Source: Escherichia phage vB_EcoM_PHB13. From it: 64,000 bases of DNA. The notes below the pieces were generated by a model. The model worked only from the letters and a program-made list of their open reading frames with translations. It did not search any database and had not been told where the DNA came from. The stretch lies in the sequence record MK573636; one strand, written 5' to 3'. A program made the position numbers and the translations under genes. Below are positions 1,840 through 21,520 of the stretch, piece after piece; position 1 is the first letter of the stretch, and every line of letters starts with the position of its first letter.

Positions 1840-3639
1840 TCACCCAAGATCAATACGGCTACCATCAATTTTAACTGTACCAGATGCAATATCTTTAACG
1901 CTTGCACCACAATTACGGGACCAGTCACCATTAACCTGGTCTGATTTAGTGCCATTGACGGTCATATTAAAATTACCCTCAACGGTTAAATCATAGTTAC
2001 CTTTAATTGTTTCGGTAGTGTTACCCTCGATCATTAATTCAGCATTACCCTTGACGTTAGCCGTCAAATTGGCGTCAAGCTGCGCGGTAACATCACCTAC
2101 AACATGCATATTTGCAGTACCTTCAACGGTCTGATTAACATTGCCACGAATAAATTCAGTGACGTTACCATCAACGGTTTGCATCACATTACCCATATAA
2201 TAAACTTGCGCGTCACCTTCAACAACAACTTGCAGATTTCCTTTAACGTTGACTTTGCGACCTTGCTTAACGATCAAATAATCATCACCTTCAATCTTTT
2301 CTACCCTCGTTCCGTCCGGTCTGGTTTCTTCAAATGTACCAGAAGGATGTTTACGATGATAACGCTCGTGAGAAGGAGTATCATCAATCTCGATAATATG
2401 ACCGCTCTCTGACTCGTACACATGGTTATATGGATACCTTGCAGAATACGAACTCTTAGGCTCTTTAAACATGATTCGTGTGTCTTGTGGGGTAAACGGT
2501 GCTTCTGGGTCTTCTTCTGCTCTCTGCGTCTTATAGGCAGCAATACGGGCATTTCTCAAACGTGCTCGCGGATCATCCGAAATTGATTCCTCTTTCTTTG
2601 GAGCAATTACGCCATATGATTCTAAGTTACCAGTTAAAATAATTTTAGAAACACGGCTTGAACGTCCTGGAGTTTGGTTAGCCCATACCGATTGACGTAA
2701 TCCATCATAGGCTTGTTTCCATTCTTCCGCTAACATCGCAGCAAGACTATTCTTAAATTTACCCAATCCACCAACGCCCATTTGAAACGCCATATTTTCT
2801 AATGCCATACGACGAGAAGCATTACACTTATTATAGACAGGTGCAATTCGTGGATGTTTGCGCATATCACGACGAGTCTTTTCTATATCGTCAGCAAATA
2901 CTTTACTGACTTCTTCGGCTGTAAGTCTTCCGTTTGTAACTTCACGCCCTACCAGCTTAGAAAGTTCATTATTGATAATACCCAGATCACTGGTTTTCTT
3001 ATAAATGATCAAATGCCCGATTCCTATTGTCGGATATCCTTCTGAATCAAGATACCATTTCTCACGATATCCCTCATCGCCACGAAGCATTTTTTCTATT
3101 GTAAAATCAGGATTATCATCAACCGGAATTTGATCTAATGGCTCGTCGTCTGGATTTACTGCAACTCCAGTGTTTTCATCTCGAATATAGACACTATCAG
3201 GTTTTGTTGTTTGTCCGGTTTCTGGGTTAATACCGCCACGGGCAAGAATATTAACATCATTACCGATATAACGCGGATATGCACCGGAAGGGTCGCAAAA
3301 ACCTTCTGTAGTGAGTGGTTTCTCTGTATATTGTCCGGCAATAGTACCCAGAATAACGCAGTTTAAATAACGTTCATCTAAAGCCAAACCAAATACCATT
3401 GAACCTTCAACAATACCAGTAGGGCTTTGACCTATACCGGAGATCGCCGCGCTTGTAATATCTTGTACTGGCGTAATCCATAATAGATCTTCGGTTGGAA
3501 GACCTTGAATGTCACCGTGTGCGGATAGCGAAGGATGTATACCATGAATCCTAACCTGAACACGCCCCAGCATTAATGGGTCTTCCCTGTTTTCTACAAT
3601 TCCGGTAAACCATTTAACGGAGTTATTAAACATTAGCAT
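1840..3639 (-). CDS. 5: baseplate central spike / tail lysozyme gp5
   Basis: 599 aa. Central T4-lysozyme-like domain (...MLRGDEGYREKWYLDSEGYPTIGIGHLI...) and C-terminal beta-helix repeats (VxGNxxxxV repeated many times) are typical of the T4 cell-puncturing device. Confidence 0.9.
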   Translation of the reverse strand: MLMFNNSVKWFTGIVENREDPLMLGRVQVRIHGIHPSLSAHGDIQGLPTEDLLWITPVQDITSAAISGIGQSPTGIVEGSMVFGLALDERYLNCVILGTIAGQYTEKPLTTEGFCDPSGAYPRYIGNDVNILARGGINPETGQTTKPDSVYIRDENTGVAVNPDDEPLDQIPVDDNPDFTIEKMLRGDEGYREKWYLDSEGYPTIGIGHLIIYKKTSDLGIINNELSKLVGREVTNGRLTAEEVSKVFADDIEKTRRDMRKHPRIAPVYNKCNASRRMALENMAFQMGVGGLGKFKNSLAAMLAEEWKQAYDGLRQSVWANQTPGRSSRVSKIILTGNLESYGVIAPKKEESISDDPRARLRNARIAAYKTQRAEEDPEAPFTPQDTRIMFKEPKSSYSARYPYNHVYESESGHIIEIDDTPSHERYHRKHPSGTFEETRPDGTRVEKIEGDDYLIVKQGRKVNVKGNLQVVVEGDAQVYYMGNVMQTVDGNVTEFIRGNVNQTVEGTANMHVVGDVTAQLDANLTANVKGNAELMIEGNTTETIKGNYDLTVEGNFNMTVNGTKSDQVNGDWSRNCGASVKDIASGTVKIDGSRIDLG

Positions 3640-8461: not shown

Positions 8462-8722
8462 ATGTCCAATCAGCATGAACAAATGATTAATGTCCTGAAA
8501 GTACGTCTGTTCGACACTCAAGAAAAAGCCGCATTCTTAGAAGGCCAACTGAAAGATCGTGAGCGTGTATTGATGGAACTGGTACGCATTCTGGGTATTC
8601 AGCCAGACGAAAACGGGACTGTTTCCCTTGATGCTATTGTCGAAGAAGTGAAAGCACTTCTCCCTAAAGACGAAGCAGCGGAAGACGCAGAAGAGGAAGT
8701 AGAACTGATCACGGAGGCTTGA
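8462..8722 (+). CDS. 57A: tail-fibre assembly chaperone gp57A
   Basis: About 86 aa, acidic coiled-coil protein after AGGAG SD; position after gene 1 as in T4. Confidence 0.65.
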   Translation: MSNQHEQMINVLKVRLFDTQEKAAFLEGQLKDRERVLMELVRILGIQPDENGTVSLDAIVEEVKALLPKDEAAEDAEEEVELITEA

Positions 8723-9189
8723 TTATGACCCCGTTTAGAGAATCCGTTAAAGGTACATATGCGGCGGTTAAATTCACTGAGGATACACTAGACCGCATTG
8801 AAAAATTGCAGGAGTTCTACGATCTGCCTAATGCCGTTCCTCGTGATAAACTGCATAGCACTATCTTATATTCTCGTGTCTATGTTCCGTTTATCCCAGA
8901 AGAAGGGGAGAAGTTCTTAGGCTCTCTATGCCATCTGAAAGTGTTTGAAACTCAATCCGGTACTAATGCTCTTGTGCTGGCATTTGAAAGCGACTACATG
9001 CAATTCAGACACGATATCGGCACTGCTTTAGGTGCGACGTGGGATTATCCTGAATATGTACCGCATATCACGCTTTCTTATGATGTTGGTGCGCGTAAAT
9101 TTGGCACTGACCTAGAGTTCGATTTAGAGATTGTCCGATCTCATGAGTATGTCGAAGATCTAGACCTGGAGTGGACGACCAAACTGTAA
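8719..9189 (+). CDS. 57B: gp57B-like protein, 2H phosphoesterase fold
   Basis: 156 aa with two H-x-T/S-x motifs (HSTI, HITL) characteristic of the 2H phosphoesterase superfamily; T4 57B position. Confidence 0.6.
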   Translation: MIMTPFRESVKGTYAAVKFTEDTLDRIEKLQEFYDLPNAVPRDKLHSTILYSRVYVPFIPEEGEKFLGSLCHLKVFETQSGTNALVLAFESDYMQFRHDIGTALGATWDYPEYVPHITLSYDVGARKFGTDLEFDLEIVRSHEYVEDLDLEWTTKL

Positions 9190-9910: not shown

Positions 9911-10114
9911 ATGGAATTGGATATGGTTAAAGCAAAATTTATGGGTAAGGATAAGAGCGGTAAAACATTTGTTATTAATAGAACATTGTTTCGCTCTGAC
10001 CTTAAGTGGGTGACACAACAATTTGCGGAAGTCAACGAGGCAGTTGTGACATGCTTCGTTGATGATAAAAAAGTTTTTGAAATTGATCGTCGTGGGGTGT
10101 CTAATGATCACTAA
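9911..10114 (+). CDS. hypothetical protein
   Basis: 67 aa ORF with AAGGTG SD. Confidence 0.4.
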   Translation: MELDMVKAKFMGKDKSGKTFVINRTLFRSDLKWVTQQFAEVNEAVVTCFVDDKKVFEIDRRGVSNDH

Positions 10115-10301
10115 ACTGTTTAGCAATACTTTGTTTATGATTGCATTTGTTTTCTTTCTGTGTCTGATGATCGGTGTTGTTACAGTAGGTAGCTATTCCG
10201 GTGTTACCTTAGATGATTTTTGCAAACTTGTTATGGTCTCGTTTATACCTAGTATTCTGCTCGCTTTATGTGGTGCTTTTAAATGGCTTTGTACGCTATG
10301 A
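10104..10301 (+). CDS. small membrane protein
   Basis: Hydrophobic 65 aa from an ATG overlapping the previous stop (ATGATCACTAA). Confidence 0.4.
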   Translation: MITKLFSNTLFMIAFVFFLCLMIGVVTVGSYSGVTLDDFCKLVMVSFIPSILLALCGAFKWLCTL

Positions 10302-10389
10302 ACGAAATAGAACGAATGATGTTGATAGGTGGACCTGAGTTCACTAAATTTGATGCAATTCTTATTGCGTTGGGTTTTCTTATGATCTG

Positions 10390-10629
10390 TTGTATGGTGG
10401 CGCTATGAGTAGTATAAAATATTTCGCTTTCTTGTGCTTTATGATGTTCTTTACATTCTTAGCATGTGTTTTCTTTACCTGGCTTGCTCATGTTGATAAT
10501 GCAACCGGACCGTTTTACTTCTTCTGTGTATTGTCTGTGTTGACTGGTGCTCTTGTTACGTGGATGATTCGAGATTGTTACGGAATGTATAAGTTTGAAA
10601 AGACTCGACCGAAATGGGGCAAACGATGA
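10390..10629 (+). CDS. small membrane protein
   Basis: 79 aa with two hydrophobic segments; start uncertain. Confidence 0.4.
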   Translation: MYGGAMSSIKYFAFLCFMMFFTFLACVFFTWLAHVDNATGPFYFFCVLSVLTGALVTWMIRDCYGMYKFEKTRPKWGKR

Positions 10630-10808
10630 AATTATTTGCGTGGCTAATTATTTTAAATGTAATTGTTAAGACCTTTCTCGCTGGTCTGATGATGGCGCAT
10701 AGCACCGAACCAGAAGAAGCATTAACGTATTTTGTTGCTTATGTGTTGGGATTCTTGCTTACTGCGTGGATGTGTGATGAATATCGAAGAATTGAGGTAA
10801 AACCATGA
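10614..10808 (+). CDS. small membrane protein
   Basis: 64 aa hydrophobic ORF overlapping its neighbours. Confidence 0.4.
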   Translation: MGQTMKLFAWLIILNVIVKTFLAGLMMAHSTEPEEALTYFVAYVLGFLLTAWMCDEYRRIEVKP

Positions 10809-11023
10809 AGATGACTTTTTATATCTTAGCAAGTATCATGCTTGTGATCTCTTCTGCACTATTTGCATTTCTTACCGTTTGGGGGATCTGCACTGATGCG
10901 AAGCCGTGGGATATCATAGAAAATACGGTTATGTTCCTGATCAGTGTCATGTGTCTTTTTGATGCATTTAACTCTATCAAGGAAGAAGATCAAAAACGTC
11001 GCGAGAGAAAGCGATATAAATAA
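10805..11023 (+). CDS. small membrane protein
   Basis: 72 aa with two TM segments and a basic C-terminus. Confidence 0.4.
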   Translation: MKMTFYILASIMLVISSALFAFLTVWGICTDAKPWDIIENTVMFLISVMCLFDAFNSIKEEDQKRRERKRYK

Positions 11024-14801: not shown

Positions 14802-15191
14802 ATGTTTAAATTATCTCAAAGAAGCAAAGATCGGCTTGTTGGTGTACATCCAGACCTAGTAAAAGTCGTTCATCGTGCATTAGAACTGACTCCGGTCGAT
14901 TTTGGTATTACGGAAGGTGTGCGTAGTCTAGAAACGCAAAAGAAATATGTTGCGGAAGGTAAATCTAAGACTATGAAATCTCGTCATCTTCACGGTTTCG
15001 CGGTTGACGTTGTAGCGTATCCTAAAGATAAGGATACATGGAACATGAAATATTACCGCATGATCGCTGATGCATTTAAACAAGCTGGTCGAGAATTGGG
15101 TGTTCCTGTTGAATGGGGTGGGGATTGGTCTAGTTTCAAAGATGGTCCTCATCTACAATTGCCACACAGCAAATACCCAGATCCAAAATAA
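14802..15191 (+). CDS. L-alanyl-D-glutamate peptidase endolysin (peptidase M15 / VanY-like)
   Basis: 129 aa with zinc-binding SRHLHGFAVD motif and a second His (DGPHLQ) diagnostic of M15 peptidases such as the T5 endolysin; occupies the approximate position of T4 gene e but is not a T4-type lysozyme. Confidence 0.75.
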   Translation: MFKLSQRSKDRLVGVHPDLVKVVHRALELTPVDFGITEGVRSLETQKKYVAEGKSKTMKSRHLHGFAVDVVAYPKDKDTWNMKYYRMIADAFKQAGRELGVPVEWGGDWSSFKDGPHLQLPHSKYPDPK

Positions 15192-15874: not shown

Positions 15875-16291
15875 ATGGAATTTAAAGCAATTCAAATCAT
15901 GAAAGGTGAGCATAAAGGTACTATTATCGGTGGACACTTCGCGCCTATGATTCTGGTATCCGAACCGAAAGCACTGATCGGCGCTAAAGTAATTGTTAGT
16001 AAGACTTTCGCAGAAGACCATGCGATCACCGCAGAAGACGTCGATTCTCTGGCACTGCACACAACTAGCTTCCGTCCTGTTATTGTAGATAATGGTGCTC
16101 CTGTTGTCGAAGGTGGTCAGCATTTGAATGTTAACGTATTGTTACGAGAAATGTTGCTGGACGCTGTTGAACATCCTGAGAAGTACCCGCAGCTTACAAT
16201 TCGCGTTTCTGGTTACGCAGTGCGCTTCAATAGTCTGACTCCAGACCAGCAACGTGATGTTATCGCTCGTACCTTTACCGAATCTCTCTAA
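15875..16291 (+). CDS. autonomous glycyl radical cofactor (GrcA/YfiD-like)
   Basis: 138 aa; C-terminal ~60 aa ([59 protein letters not shown]) is nearly identical to the glycyl-radical domain of enterobacterial GrcA/PFL, including the RVSGY motif. Confidence 0.85.
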
Positions 16292-17097: not shown

Positions 17098-17292
17098 ATG
17101 CAAGTTTATACCAATAGCAATAAAGGACAAGATATTACGCCCGGAAAGATGTATGATTTTACCCCGGCACGAGACGACGAACATCCACCGACTATCGGGT
17201 ATATTGAAGATGATGTGGGGTTTCGTATTACGATCCTTCTTGATGGTGGATGTTCTCATCTTCGCGGTGATAAATGGGAGTTAGTACCATGA
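17098..17292 (+). CDS. small paralogous protein A
   Basis: 64 aa; shares K(M/L)Y.FTP...GYI.DD.G...GCSHL...W motifs with the next two ORFs. Confidence 0.45.
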   Translation: MQVYTNSNKGQDITPGKMYDFTPARDDEHPPTIGYIEDDVGFRITILLDGGCSHLRGDKWELVP

Positions 17293-17534
17293 TGTATGTG
17301 ATGACACCTTATAGTAGTAGATCGTACATCACCCCAAATAAACTGTATAAGTTTACGCCAGATGAAAGAATGTCTACCTACGGTTACATCAAAGATGATA
17401 AAGGATACAAACTTTTTATTTCTCTGAAAAGCTGTGCATACTTAGACGACCGTCCGTGGACACTGATCGAAGAACCAAAACAACCTGAGAATAAAGGTCT
17501 TTGGAATGTGCTAAAAAAATTCTTGAAAAAGTAG
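17289..17534 (+). CDS. small paralogous protein B
   Basis: About 81 aa paralog of 17098; ATG after GGAG SD. Confidence 0.45.
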   Translation: MMYVMTPYSSRSYITPNKLYKFTPDERMSTYGYIKDDKGYKLFISLKSCAYLDDRPWTLIEEPKQPENKGLWNVLKKFLKK

Positions 17535-17591: not shown

Positions 17592-17927
17592 ATGAGTGTT
17601 AAAGAAGTATTTGTTTATACTGACTATGAAGGGTGTGCCTATCTCACTGCTGGAAAACTTTACCGTTGTGAGATTATTCATGGTACGTTAGGTCGAATTA
17701 TGTGCGATCCTATTACAAAATTGTGGAAAAATAATCCTAGTGAGCGAGAAACTCTTATTAACCTAGATCCAGACGGTTGTTCACATTTGGACTATAGAAA
17801 ATGGCATATAGTTACACATGATGCTTATGGTATTCATCTTGCTACTAAAGAATTAACTATTGACAAGTTCAAGTTTAAAGAAATCCCGTTTGTATACTGG
17901 CTTCGCAATTTGTTTAAGAAAGGATAA
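17592..17927 (+). CDS. small paralogous protein C
   Basis: 111 aa, third member of the family (KLYRCE...DPDGCSHLDYRKW). Confidence 0.45.
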   Translation: MSVKEVFVYTDYEGCAYLTAGKLYRCEIIHGTLGRIMCDPITKLWKNNPSERETLINLDPDGCSHLDYRKWHIVTHDAYGIHLATKELTIDKFKFKEIPFVYWLRNLFKKG

Positions 17928-18376: not shown

Positions 18377-18405
18377 TTGACTTTCTGGTGATAGGGCTAT
18401 ATTAT
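18377..18405 (+). promoter_or_regulatory. sigma70-type promoter upstream of the transglycosylase gene
   Basis: AATGCTTGACT ... TATATTAT; -35 overlaps a TGCTT MotA-box-like motif. Confidence 0.4.
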
Positions 18406-18439
18406 GGAATCAGAAAGTTAAGCCAAACAGGAGAAATTA

Positions 18440-19030
18440 ATGTTAAAAGTTCTAAAAGCGATAGTATTGAGTCTGTCACTAGCCGTTGGTGCTACACACG
18501 CATCGACTAGCGCACCGATCAAAAAAGCGCCGATAGACAACTTTACAGCACACCAACTAGATAATTTACATTTCGCCTATCAATACGGCGAACAATTCGA
18601 GAAAAGCGGTAAGTTGAAAAAGCACCATCCGAATATTCGCTATAACGGAAAGGGTTTAGGCCACATCCTGGCGGGTATCGCATGGCAAGAATCAAGCGCG
18701 GGTGCAAACTTAGCACCAAAGAAAAATCATCATGCTTATGGATTATTTCAAAATTACCTTAAAACGGTGAAAGCGAAAAATGCAAAGCGCGGTGTTAAAA
18801 TGAGTGATCGCCAGACTATCAACTTTATAATGAATCGCGAGGTTTCTGCATTCTACGCGATGGATGAGTTAGCATACTGGCTGGATGTTCGAAACGGTAA
18901 TATCCGACTCGCGCTAGCTTCTTACAATGCAGGATGGAACTATAAAGCCGGTTTAGGTTATGCTGATGATGTACTAAAAAAGGCTAACCATCTAAAGAGT
19001 AAAGGCATTCTTAAAACTAAACGCTATTGA
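18440..19030 (+). CDS. secreted lytic transglycosylase-like protein (SLT domain)
   Basis: 196 aa; N-terminal signal peptide (MLKVLKAIVLSLSLAVGATHA); SLT signature AWQESS...GLFQ...YNAG. Confidence 0.6.
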   Translation: MLKVLKAIVLSLSLAVGATHASTSAPIKKAPIDNFTAHQLDNLHFAYQYGEQFEKSGKLKKHHPNIRYNGKGLGHILAGIAWQESSAGANLAPKKNHHAYGLFQNYLKTVKAKNAKRGVKMSDRQTINFIMNREVSAFYAMDELAYWLDVRNGNIRLALASYNAGWNYKAGLGYADDVLKKANHLKSKGILKTKRY

Positions 19031-19037
19031 GGAATGT

Positions 19038-19397
19038 ATGAAAAAGTTGACAATAATTGCTATGATTGCTATGATGTTCTCTGCTGGTGCGCTTGCTAGT
19101 AATGAGCGACCTTATCCAAAGTTCGAATACAAAGGATTTGAGATCAACAAAAAGATCATTAAAACCTTCTGTGATGATGATAACATGTGTAGCGATTTTA
19201 TAGCACTTGAACTCGACGAAGCCTATAAACAAGGTCGAGATGAAAAACGAAAAAATCGAGCGTGGGATCTGAGTATTGCCAGCTTTGCTAAAACAAAACG
19301 CAATCTGTGTGATACTGCCCCTGATAAGCAATTATGCTTTGCCTATCGAGACACACTGTTAAGCCGTTTTATGGCTGGGTTGTCTTCCCGTGACTAA
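19038..19397 (+). CDS. secreted hypothetical protein
   Basis: 119 aa with cleavable signal peptide (MKKLTIIAMIAMMFSAGALA) and four Cys; immediately downstream of the SLT gene. Confidence 0.45.
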   Translation: MKKLTIIAMIAMMFSAGALASNERPYPKFEYKGFEINKKIIKTFCDDDNMCSDFIALELDEAYKQGRDEKRKNRAWDLSIASFAKTKRNLCDTAPDKQLCFAYRDTLLSRFMAGLSSRD

Positions 19398-19412: not shown

Positions 19413-19868
19413 ATGATTATTGATACTGTAAAGGGCGATCTCATCGCCCTGTTTAAACAAGGAAACGGTCATTTAATTCATGGTTGTAATTGTTTTCATA
19501 CTATGGGCGCTGGTATTGCTGCAAAGATCGCGAAAGAGTTCCCACAAGCGTTAGAGATTGACAAGCAAACTTCTCGCGGTAAGGTAGAAAAGCTGGGTGG
19601 GTTTAGTGTCTGGACGCATCAAGTTAATGGTTATAATTGGTGCGGGGTGAATCTCTATACCCAATTCCGACCGGGTCCAAATGCTGAATATGGTGCTATC
19701 CTGAAAGGATTTGAGACTATCAATGATGTTTTTGAAGGTGCTATACAGCCTTTCTATATTCCTAAAATCGGTTGCGGTATCGGTGGCCTTGAGTGGGAAT
19801 GTGTAGAAGAGATCATTAATATTGCTACTCCAGACATTAACATTGTGGTGGTTGAATATGACAAATAA
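19413..19868 (+). CDS. macro-domain protein (putative ADP-ribose binding / ADP-ribosylhydrolase)
   Basis: 151 aa; Gly-rich motifs (HGCNCFHTMGAGIAAKIA and IPKIGCGIGGL) in macrodomain-like arrangement. Confidence 0.5.
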   Translation: MIIDTVKGDLIALFKQGNGHLIHGCNCFHTMGAGIAAKIAKEFPQALEIDKQTSRGKVEKLGGFSVWTHQVNGYNWCGVNLYTQFRPGPNAEYGAILKGFETINDVFEGAIQPFYIPKIGCGIGGLEWECVEEIINIATPDINIVVVEYDK

Positions 19869-20052
19869 AAATGATCTATATTCCGGTGATTGGGTGAAAC
19901 GTCAGTCTGTAGAAAACGTAACTTGTTTTCGTTGTTTCACTGAATACAATATAAAAACCGCTCCTGTTAGTGTTCCAAAGACAGACGGGTATTATATTAA
20001 AGAACCGCATTGCCCTAAATGTAAATGTCGATTATATTGGAGTCATCTATGA
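19858..20052 (+). CDS. Cys-rich zinc-ribbon-like small protein
   Basis: About 64 aa with CxxC...CPKCKC motifs. Confidence 0.4.
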   Translation: MTNKNDLYSGDWVKRQSVENVTCFRCFTEYNIKTAPVSVPKTDGYYIKEPHCPKCKCRLYWSHL

Positions 20053-20267
20053 ATAAGCCTAATACCGCTCACATGAAGGAAAACTGCCGTTGTGGTAGAT
20101 GTGGTTGGCCTATCATCTTCACTTGCTGTAACGACGATATGCAGCGTTTACCGTGGGGAATGTGGGATTGGTGGATGTATTGCAGCAATAAAGGTTGCGA
20201 CCATCATGAAGGTGAAGGAGTCTTTCAGGAAACACCTGATTGGGTGGAGGTGATAGAAAATGCTTGA
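20049..20267 (+). CDS. Cys-rich small protein
   Basis: About 72 aa with CRCGRCG and CCND...CSNKGC motifs. Confidence 0.4.
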   Translation: MNKPNTAHMKENCRCGRCGWPIIFTCCNDDMQRLPWGMWDWWMYCSNKGCDHHEGEGVFQETPDWVEVIENA

Positions 20268-21217: not shown

Positions 21218-21520
21218 ATGTCATTTATTCGTAAAACTCTAACAGCGGCAATATGCTTGACTGCGGTCGGAAGTGTCAGTGCTGATCAATATGATCCAAC
21301 TGGTGACTTTACTGATTATTTCGACGGCGCAATGATAGTATATGTAAACAAAATATCTCCTTCCATTGAAACCAGCCAGAAATTTCATGCCCATATTATG
21401 AAGATGTATGCTCGTAGTAAATGTATGGATTCTAGGCAGTGTTTTATTATGGGGGGATATGCCGCACAACAATTTGTTCTGTTGCATAATATGGAGAATC
21501 GAGAACATGAAATTCAGTGA
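21218..21520 (+). CDS. rI: lysis inhibition regulator RI-like periplasmic protein (antiholin)
   Basis: 100 aa with N-terminal signal-anchor sequence and a two-Cys C-terminal domain; directly after tk, as rI is in T4 (97 aa). Confidence 0.5.
   Translation: MSFIRKTLTAAICLTAVGSVSADQYDPTGDFTDYFDGAMIVYVNKISPSIETSQKFHAHIMKMYARSKCMDSRQCFIMGGYAAQQFVLLHNMENREHEIQ

Follow-up and report, generated by a model that had tools for sequence, protein, structure and literature searches.

Predicted export of a candidate lytic transglycosylase and of a four-cysteine protein encoded by the vs.1/vs gene pair of Escherichia phage vB_EcoM_PHB13

Identity of the gene pair

The window examined is a stretch of 64,000 nucleotides from Escherichia phage vB_EcoM_PHB13 (sequence record MK573636), a Krischvirus of the RB49/GEC-3S type (DNA identity 97–98% by megablast). 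Two adjacent open reading frames (ORFs) of the window correspond, as Krischvirus orthologues, to vs.1 and vs, two early genes of T4, and they probably encode an exported family-1 lytic transglycosylase, Vs.1, and an exported, disulfide-bonded protein, Vs. An earlier note, made from the letters of the window, had described an ORF pair at 18440–19397. Its coordinates are exact and both ORFs are real; the description of the pair stood, whereas its identity as T4 vs.1/vs was missed, ORF2 having long been annotated as 'valyl-tRNA synthetase modifier'. Earlier work had already recorded the SLT similarity of vs.1 (in 2006) and, in GenBank notes, the secretion signals. The two genes are:

18440..19030 (+): vs.1 orthologue, coding sequence of ORF1, 196 amino acids, ATG start, predicted exported lytic transglycosylase (phrog_600, Pfam SLT, T2 synteny)
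19038..19397 (+): vs orthologue, coding sequence of ORF2, 119 amino acids, ATG start, 'valyl-tRNA synthetase modifier' family (phrog_1256, PF26829 on a relative)

The pair is identified as vs.1 and vs because the profile matches and the gene order agree with those of T2/T4. ORF1 matches phrog_600 at 8.2e-60 over residues 6–193, and a Vs.1 homologue of the phrog_600 type is present in 2035 phage records. ORF2 matches phrog_1256 ('valyl tRNA synthetase modifier') at 1.8e-33 over residues 1–118 and is 100% identical to an RB49 protein; the Pfam family PF26829 (ValRS_modifier) is carried by P0024, a cluster representative 97% identical to ORF2. With its profile match, a size within about 100–135 amino acids, four Cys and a position after vs.1, Vs has the characters of the ValRS_modifier family. 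The gene order in the window is regB (Pfam REGB_T4 match, 7e-48), ORF1, ORF2, a macro-domain gene (tk.4), small ORFs, tk and rI, which is the T2/T4 order regB, vs.1, vs, tk.4 ... tk, rI and is also the same in Ec_Makalu_001. As a genome feature the locus consists of already-catalogued T4-type genes, 97–100% identical to those of deposited RB49-like phages, and in that respect the pair is ordinary and carries little weight on its own.

Vs.1 resembles family-1 lytic transglycosylases

The domain and the candidate catalytic residue of Vs.1 are encoded at the following positions:

18665..18940 (+): SLT domain core, residues 76–167 (Pfam match; fold matches)
18689..18691 (+): codon of Glu84, candidate catalytic acid/base in AWQE84SS (invariant in homologue alignments; aligned with AIAWNES of EtgA)

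The Pfam SLT profile (PF01464) matches ORF1 over residues 76–167 with an E value of 6.7e-6 and a score of 26.1 bits, compared with a gathering score of 21.3. The transglycosylase signature that the earlier note had read in the first ORF is present as A81-W-Q-E84-S-S86, G101-L-F-Q104 and Y162-N-A-G165, and its catalytic glutamate is borne out as Glu84, which is invariant in 23/23 and 24/24 Vs.1 homologues in two alignments. The alignment of 23 sequences covers Straboviridae, Ackermannviridae (S117) and a FelixO1-like phage (Moogle), and the residues invariant in it are E84, G101, Q104, E143, W147, S161, Y162, G165 and Y174. All sequence motifs of SLT family 1 are found, namely the E-S motif, GLFQ (of the G-L-M-Q type), S161-Y-N-A-G165 (of the A-Y-N-x-G type) and the downstream Tyr174. 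A second catalytic Asp separates g-type lysozymes from transglycosylases, and the alignment of the 23 homologues contains no invariant Asp column.

When the Vs.1 family profile was compared with the Protein Data Bank (PDB), the top match was EtgA, a transglycosylase of the type III secretion system (T3SS), with an E value of 0.02 and AIAWQES aligned with AIAWNES. The AlphaFold model of Vs.1 has an overall predicted local distance difference test (pLDDT) score of 82.9, falling below 50 for residues 18–31, and adopts a lysozyme-like α-helical fold. The top 21 Foldseek matches of this model are all lytic transglycosylases or GH23 enzymes, and PliG complexed with a g-type lysozyme also occurs among the fold matches. 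Vs.1 has no Cys, and the predicted mature protein comprises 175 amino acids with a mass of 19.8 kDa and an isoelectric point of 9.9, which describes a soluble type of periplasmic enzyme and not a lipoprotein. Sequence and predicted fold together support Vs.1 as a candidate SLT-type (GH23, family-1) lytic transglycosylase with a conserved catalytic Glu.

Two further elements are conserved in Vs.1, a nearly invariant His-His at residues 97–98 (NHHAYG), immediately before GLFQ, and an N-terminal helix at residues 39–50 that includes Q39, A46, Y47 and G50. To our knowledge, neither is a standard SLT motif.

Vs is a predicted helical protein with four invariant cysteines

The cysteine codons of Vs are located as follows:

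19170..19190 (+): codons of Cys45 and Cys51, C-x5-C at the turn between helix 1 and helix 2 (invariant in 45 sequences)
19308..19337 (+): codons of Cys91 and Cys100, C-x8-C, with Cys91 ahead of helix 4 and Cys100 at its beginning (invariant in 45 sequences)

Six positions in all are invariant across 45 members of the Vs family, C45, C51, G66, C91, C100 and G114, and the cysteine spacing follows C-x5/6/10-C ... C-x8/10-C. The model of Vs (pLDDT of 75.8) contains four helices, at residues 28–45, 49–68, 76–86 and 97–117. It suggests two local disulfides, C45–C51 and C91–C100, because each Cys pair brackets a helix–helix turn, as judged from the helix limits rather than from coordinates. The predicted mature protein has a mass of 11.6 kDa in the window phage and 11.0 kDa in the T4 type.

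Vs has few relatives. A HMMER profile scan of 1.84 billion representatives yielded 27 clusters only, all of single-domain proteins of 77–134 amino acids, and among them was no distant relative of known function. The model returned no specific fold match and no known inhibitor fold, the single-sequence PDB search returned nothing useful, and there were no matches in NCBIfam or PADLOC. A likeness to the four-Cys lysozyme inhibitors of the DUF1311/LprI family was considered and dropped after the 45 members had been compared with Pfam at E values up to 1 with no match.

Both proteins carry predicted signal peptides

The predicted signal peptides are:

18440..18502 (+): signal peptide of Vs.1, residues 1–21, predicted cleavage between THA and STS (heuristic)
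19038..19097 (+): signal peptide of Vs, residues 1–20, predicted cleavage between ALA and SNE (heuristic)

Signal peptides were assigned with a heuristic of our own for the Sec/signal peptidase I (SPase-I) type, which requires a net positive n-region, a hydrophobic core 8 or more residues long and agreement with the −3/−1 rule. The N-terminus of Vs.1, MLKVLKAIVLSLSLAVGATHA followed by STS, has a net charge of +2 and the core AIVLSLSL, and that of Vs, MKKLTIIAMIAMMFSAGALA followed by SNE, has a net charge of +2 and the core IIAMIAMM; both lack a lipobox and both pass, in agreement with the signal peptides that the earlier note had predicted. Across the window the heuristic is passed by 11/185 ORFs of at least 60 amino acids, most of which resemble small membrane proteins or the RI antiholin. 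It is also passed by 22 of the 23 Vs.1 homologues, the exception being S117, which falls short of the hydrophobicity cut-off by 0.04 units, and by 44 of the 45 Vs homologues, the exception being N-terminally truncated. All of 19 further Vs representatives, taken from the 27 clusters, have both a signal peptide and the four Cys. Column conservation is lower in the signal peptide than in the mature part (0.37 vs 0.55 in Vs.1; 0.37 vs 0.42 in Vs), and the pattern of the signal peptide is kept. The GenBank record MN648195 of Acinetobacter phage Konradin places a 'putative periplasmic secretion signal' on Vs.1, on the vs homologue, on two further ORFs and on rI. Conserved Sec-type signal peptides on both proteins are supported by these comparisons, and Vs.1 and Vs would be exported and cleaved at or near the predicted sites.

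One member of the Vs family, P0082 (108 amino acids), begins with MKKLFVLLIVFALSGC and has the lipobox LSGC in place of the SPase-I site, which again implies export of Vs. The earlier note had called exported early proteins unusual. For T4-type phages that statement does not hold: the RI antiholin is encoded 1.8 kb downstream in the window, and Spackle of T4 is another example.

Vs.1 and Vs are linked across phages

Linkage was assessed in 87 Vs.1 loci (80 from IMG/VR and 7 from GenBank), in samples that partly coincide and in which sequenced T4-type phages are over-represented. Vs lies downstream on the same strand in 68 of the 87 loci, and in 59 of these 68 the gap is −8 to +7 nt. When the Vs.1 sequences were collapsed at 70% identity into 15 lineages, Vs was adjacent to Vs.1 in 11/15; in the RB43-like lineage it lies 0.5–1.2 kb away, and in 3/15 lineages (Ackermannviridae, Aeromonas phage 31-like and Moogle) it was not found within 1.3–4.0 kb downstream. 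The pair stays together though its flanks change, as in Acinetobacter phages that lack regB and the macro gene. Among loci anchored on Vs, Vs.1 is upstream in 23/23 (16 reached via four Vs proteins and 7 via four divergent Vs proteins). The dependence is one-sided: Vs.1 can stand alone, and Vs was never seen without Vs.1.

In two of the Aeromonas phage loci in which Vs is missing, another signal-bearing ORF of 140–146 amino acids (L054, 4871–5311; L056, 5384–5806) is located just before the macro-domain gene and may be a positional replacement of Vs. An antiholin gene lies 1–3.7 kb downstream of vs.1 in 11/15 lineages.

Published data on the T4 orthologues

Nolan et al. (2006; PMC1524935), citing earlier PSI-BLAST results for T4, described vs.1 of six T4-type genomes as matching SLT marginally. 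T4 multi-omics data (PMC9697503) class both vs.1 and vs as early RNA and middle protein. In the HIDEN-SEQ preprint (10.1101/2025.11.20.689424), T4 vs and vs.1 are non-essential on LB plates, and in M9-glucose no other T4 gene is depleted as strongly as vs, a result confirmed with a deletion mutant. In liquid LB, insertions in vs averaged 26.6 counts and those in vs.1 averaged 22.6, compared with means of 179–652 for regB, tk.4 and vs.3. Between M9-glucose and LB the log2 fold change is −2.19 for vs (adjusted p, padj, 0) and −0.87 for vs.1 (p 0.0055, padj 0.155), and between the uropathogenic Escherichia coli isolate CFE299 and K-12 it is −1.04 for vs (not significant) and −1.20 for vs.1 (padj 0.015). 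With these T4 transposon phenotypes, the roles of both genes are now testable.

Full-length His-tagged T4 Vs was recovered in inclusion bodies (PMC8076793), as might be expected of a precursor whose leader is hydrophobic and whose Cys can be oxidised. Mature Vs, at ~11 kDa, would fit the cleaved form of a polypeptide known from older work on valyl-tRNA synthetase (ValRS). A T4 polypeptide of ~10 kDa, studied by Neidhardt, Marchin and Mueller in 1966–1980, reportedly binds the host ValRS and changes its stability, and T4 vs mutations are said by the same authors to interact genetically with valS alleles.

Proposed role of the pair

In the proposed explanation Vs.1 would be made with a cleavable Sec signal peptide, cut near residue 21 and freed into the periplasm, where it would be a soluble and basic protein of ~19.8 kDa with a single domain and no Cys. 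Glu84, as single acid/base, would cut the β-1,4 bonds between N-acetylmuramic acid (MurNAc) and N-acetylglucosamine (GlcNAc) and leave 1,6-anhydro-MurNAc ends, by which Vs.1 would nick or remodel the host sacculus. This action is placed before lysis because the transcripts are early and the export would proceed without the holin. Vs would be translated from the same message, from a ribosome-binding site that overlaps the vs.1 stop, and would also be exported, as a four-helix protein of ~11.6 kDa stapled by the C45–C51 and C91–C100 disulfides. In the envelope it might act together with Vs.1, modulating or assisting the enzyme rather than serving as its antidote; this cooperation is put forward as a tentative suggestion. 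The two genes would form a conserved T4-type module that the phage can do without on rich plates and that increases its fitness when phages compete in liquid culture, grow in minimal medium or infect a clinical host; expression timing and fitness are here carried over from the T4 papers. If this is true, the vs.1/vs module would benefit the phage in poor media and on certain clinical hosts. Homologues of the predicted transglycosylase Vs.1 occur in more than 2000 phage genomes from three families. No result of the analysis speaks to superinfection exclusion or to lysis timing, which the earlier note had offered as possible purposes of the enzyme.

Several points weigh against this explanation. 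The SLT score of 26.1 bits is modest, as is the profile match to EtgA (E value of 0.02), and a single-sequence PDB search with Vs.1 found no transglycosylase; the transglycosylase activity of the whole Vs.1 family is a prediction from sequence and fold. The export call comes from our own heuristic, not from SignalP, and stays at the level of sequence. The T4 transposon data concern orthologues whose identity to the window proteins is only about 50% for Vs.1 and 29% for Vs, and polar effects of the vs.1 insertions on vs are possible. Because all T4 early genes are tightly spaced, the spacing of this pair is weak evidence for translational coupling. A purely periplasmic role is also contradicted by the binding of T4 Vs to the cytoplasmic ValRS of the host, for which PMC8076793 cites Mueller & Marchin 1975/1977.

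Alternatives for Vs

The ValRS biochemistry points to the cytoplasm and the Vs sequence, with its signal peptide and Cys, points to the periplasm, and the two fit poorly. Vs might be located in both compartments, its association with ValRS might arise once cells are broken, or the vs mutation might have been mis-assigned to the ORF. This location paradox is the only part of the finding likely to surprise a specialist, and resolving it would either correct an annotation copied into hundreds of genomes or show how an exported protein reaches a tRNA synthetase. One answer, which we regard as possible though doubtful, is that Vs, listed for about 50 years as a cytoplasmic ValRS modifier, is an exported, disulfide-bonded periplasmic protein tied to Vs.1 in a two-gene envelope-remodelling module, and that its ValRS association is moonlighting, arises after breakage or was mis-assigned. 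With a similar, limited chance of being correct, Vs could be a cytoplasmic protein that binds the host ValRS as labelled, with a hydrophobic N-terminus unused or partly used for export, an adjacency to vs.1 that is merely inherited, and Vs.1 acting alone. The annotation of the family as a ValRS modifier, the ValRS binding cited in PMC8076793, the depletion of T4 vs beyond that of any other gene in minimal medium, which suits a link to translation or amino acids, and the occurrence of Vs.1 without Vs in three lineages all speak for a cytoplasmic Vs. Against it stand the canonical signal peptide in 44/45 members and in the 19 further representatives, together with the member bearing a lipobox, the four invariant Cys, which lack the close CxxC-type spacing typical of zinc-binding sites, the absence of any Vs without Vs.1 in the sampled loci, and the insolubility of full-length His-tagged T4 Vs in the cytoplasm (PMC8076793).

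Vs could instead be a periplasmic inhibitor or antidote that holds Vs.1 in check until lysis, a role the earlier note had also offered for its Cys-containing partner. Periplasmic protein inhibitors of lysozymes do exist, such as Ivy, MliC and PliG, and the PliG–lysozyme complex appears among the Vs.1 fold matches; the genes are conserved, co-expressed neighbours, and loss of vs is deleterious in T4. Tight linkage of the two genes is indeed conserved, and the four Cys of the second protein are invariant, but inhibition is improbable. A pure inhibitor model predicts neutral vs.1 insertions and is disfavoured because these insertions are unfit, being about as depleted as those in vs in LB and significantly depleted on CFE299. 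Moreover, Vs.1 occurs without Vs in Ackermannviridae, in Aeromonas phages and in a FelixO1-like phage, and Vs matched no known inhibitor fold and no Pfam inhibitor family (Ivy, MliC/PliC, PliG and LprI/DUF1311 were considered).

Alternatives for Vs.1

Vs.1 might be an auxiliary lysis enzyme, membrane-tethered or of the signal-anchor-release (SAR) type, that backs or speeds the endolysin late in infection. The predicted muralytic fold and an uncharged N-terminal stretch of 21 residues (7–27) rich in Ala, Ser, Thr and Gly would suit such an enzyme, and the T4 RI antiholin uses a release-type signal. This role is unlikely, however: the T4 orthologue is an early RNA and a middle protein, not a late one, the hydrophobic core spans just ~12 residues and is followed by AXA-type sites, T4 and the window phage each have a dedicated endolysin, and the gene is non-essential in T4. 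It is more improbable still that Vs.1 is a catalytically dead peptidoglycan-binding protein whose likeness to SLT is structural only. The modest SLT score of the hidden Markov model and the purely predicted activity would allow it, but neither the catalytic Glu nor any of the four family-1 motifs varies in the three phage families compared.

Comparison with known systems

The closest relatives of the pair are the T4/T2 proteins. Vs.1 of T4/T2 (UniProt P13311; phrog_600) is encoded at the same place, after regB and before vs, has 182 residues compared with 196 in the window, and is 49–52% identical to the window protein. The SLT motifs are common to both, and the T2 signal peptide reads MRKALLAGLLAISMMAHS followed by SEH. 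Unlike T4/T2 Vs.1, the window protein continues from its signal peptide into an additional linker of ~13 residues (22–34), and its gene is preceded by a promoter-like gap. Vs of T4/T2 (UniProt P13310; phrog_1256; PF26829) shares with the window protein the signal peptide, the four Cys, Gly66, Gly114 and a mature mass of ~11 kDa, whereas the identity between window Vs and T2 Vs is just 29% and a tblastn search with window Vs does not reach T4. ValRS binding is reported for T4 Vs only, and window Vs is a member of the family by sequence.

Among cellular enzymes, Vs.1 resembles in its predicted function the small exported single-domain transglycosylases of the EtgA type (T3SS of enteropathogenic E. 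coli; PDB accession numbers 8urn and 4xp8). IpgF, IagB and VirB1 are further specialised lytic transglycosylases of envelope-spanning machines. The genomic setting of Vs.1 places it outside the EtgA/VirB1 group: its neighbours are regB, the macro-domain gene, tk and rI, with no secretion-system genes nearby. It also differs from the EtgA type in its location in the early region of a lytic phage, in its extra N-terminal helix (Q39...A46-Y47...G50) and in the NHHAYG motif. Compared with the housekeeping lytic transglycosylases Slt70 (1qsa), Slt (6fc4), MltC, MltD, MltE and MltF, Vs.1 is 14–21% identical and lacks the superhelical U/L domains, LysM and a lipid anchor. The virion transglycosylases phiKZ gp144 (3bkh) and T7 gp16 (6yt5) are carried by the virion and act from outside at injection, whereas Vs.1 has a signal peptide and would be made inside the infected cell from early mRNA, with predicted export. 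The RI antiholin and Spackle are likewise small pre-lysis proteins that act in the periplasm, with no sequence or fold relation to Vs.1 or Vs; their functions, lysis inhibition and blocking of the gp5 lysozyme, are tested, whereas the envelope roles of Vs.1 and Vs are predicted. In Konradin, Vs.1, Vs, the two further signal-bearing ORFs and rI form a single run.

Expression signals and neighbouring genes

Three candidate expression signals were read near the two genes:

18377..18405 (+): sigma-70-like promoter match, TTGACT-17-TATTAT, 10/12 positions, suggestive only (in the 85-nt gap between regB and vs.1)
18430..18433 (+): GGAG in the Shine-Dalgarno region of vs.1, also a RegB cleavage motif (read from the sequence)
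19029..19034 (+): GAGGAA, ribosome-binding site of vs, overlapping the vs.1 stop TGA at 19028–19030 (read from the sequence)

The 85-nt gap between regB and vs.1 is the sole sizeable intergenic gap in the gene block. Promoter-like matches in the region are overall not above chance (17 found, compared with 14.7 expected), and in T2 the regB–vs.1 gap is just 7 nt and has GAGG where the window has GGAG. Neither the promoter match nor GGAG was used as evidence, because both the promoter gap and GGAG are unconserved in T2 and the promoter scan did not rise above chance.

The earlier note had separated the transglycosylase from the gp5 lysozyme and the M15 endolysin, and both of these enzymes are indeed encoded elsewhere in the window: gp5, with a Phage_lysozyme (GH24) domain, at 1840–3639 (−) and a Peptidase_M15_4 protein at 14802–15191 (+), where T4 has the e lysozyme. 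The RI antiholin homologue at 21218–21520 (+) matches PF24205 (3e-23) and has a signal-like N-terminus. Directly after vs, the ORF at 19413–19868 (+) with a Pfam Macro match (1.3e-6) is the tk.4 orthologue; T4 Tk.4 is named AdfM in the HIDEN-SEQ preprint (10.1101/2025.11.20.689424) and described there as an anti-DarT2 counter-defence macrodomain. Between the macro gene and tk are two overlapping Cys-rich small ORFs, 19822–20052 and 20025–20267 (+), in which CxxC pairs resemble zinc ribbons.

Upstream of regB, three consecutive small ORFs at 17098–17292, 17274–17534 and 17592–17927 (+) look paralogous and share the pattern K.Y.FTP...GYI.DD.G...C.HL...W; the last of them matches phrog_6261. An Acb1 anti-CBASS homologue is encoded at 8719–9189 (+) and a glycyl-radical protein of the vs.6 type at 15875–16291 (+). 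Four back-to-back small ORFs of 64–79 amino acids at 10062–11023 (+) have strongly hydrophobic N-termini that pass the signal-peptide heuristic and probably encode a group of small membrane proteins.

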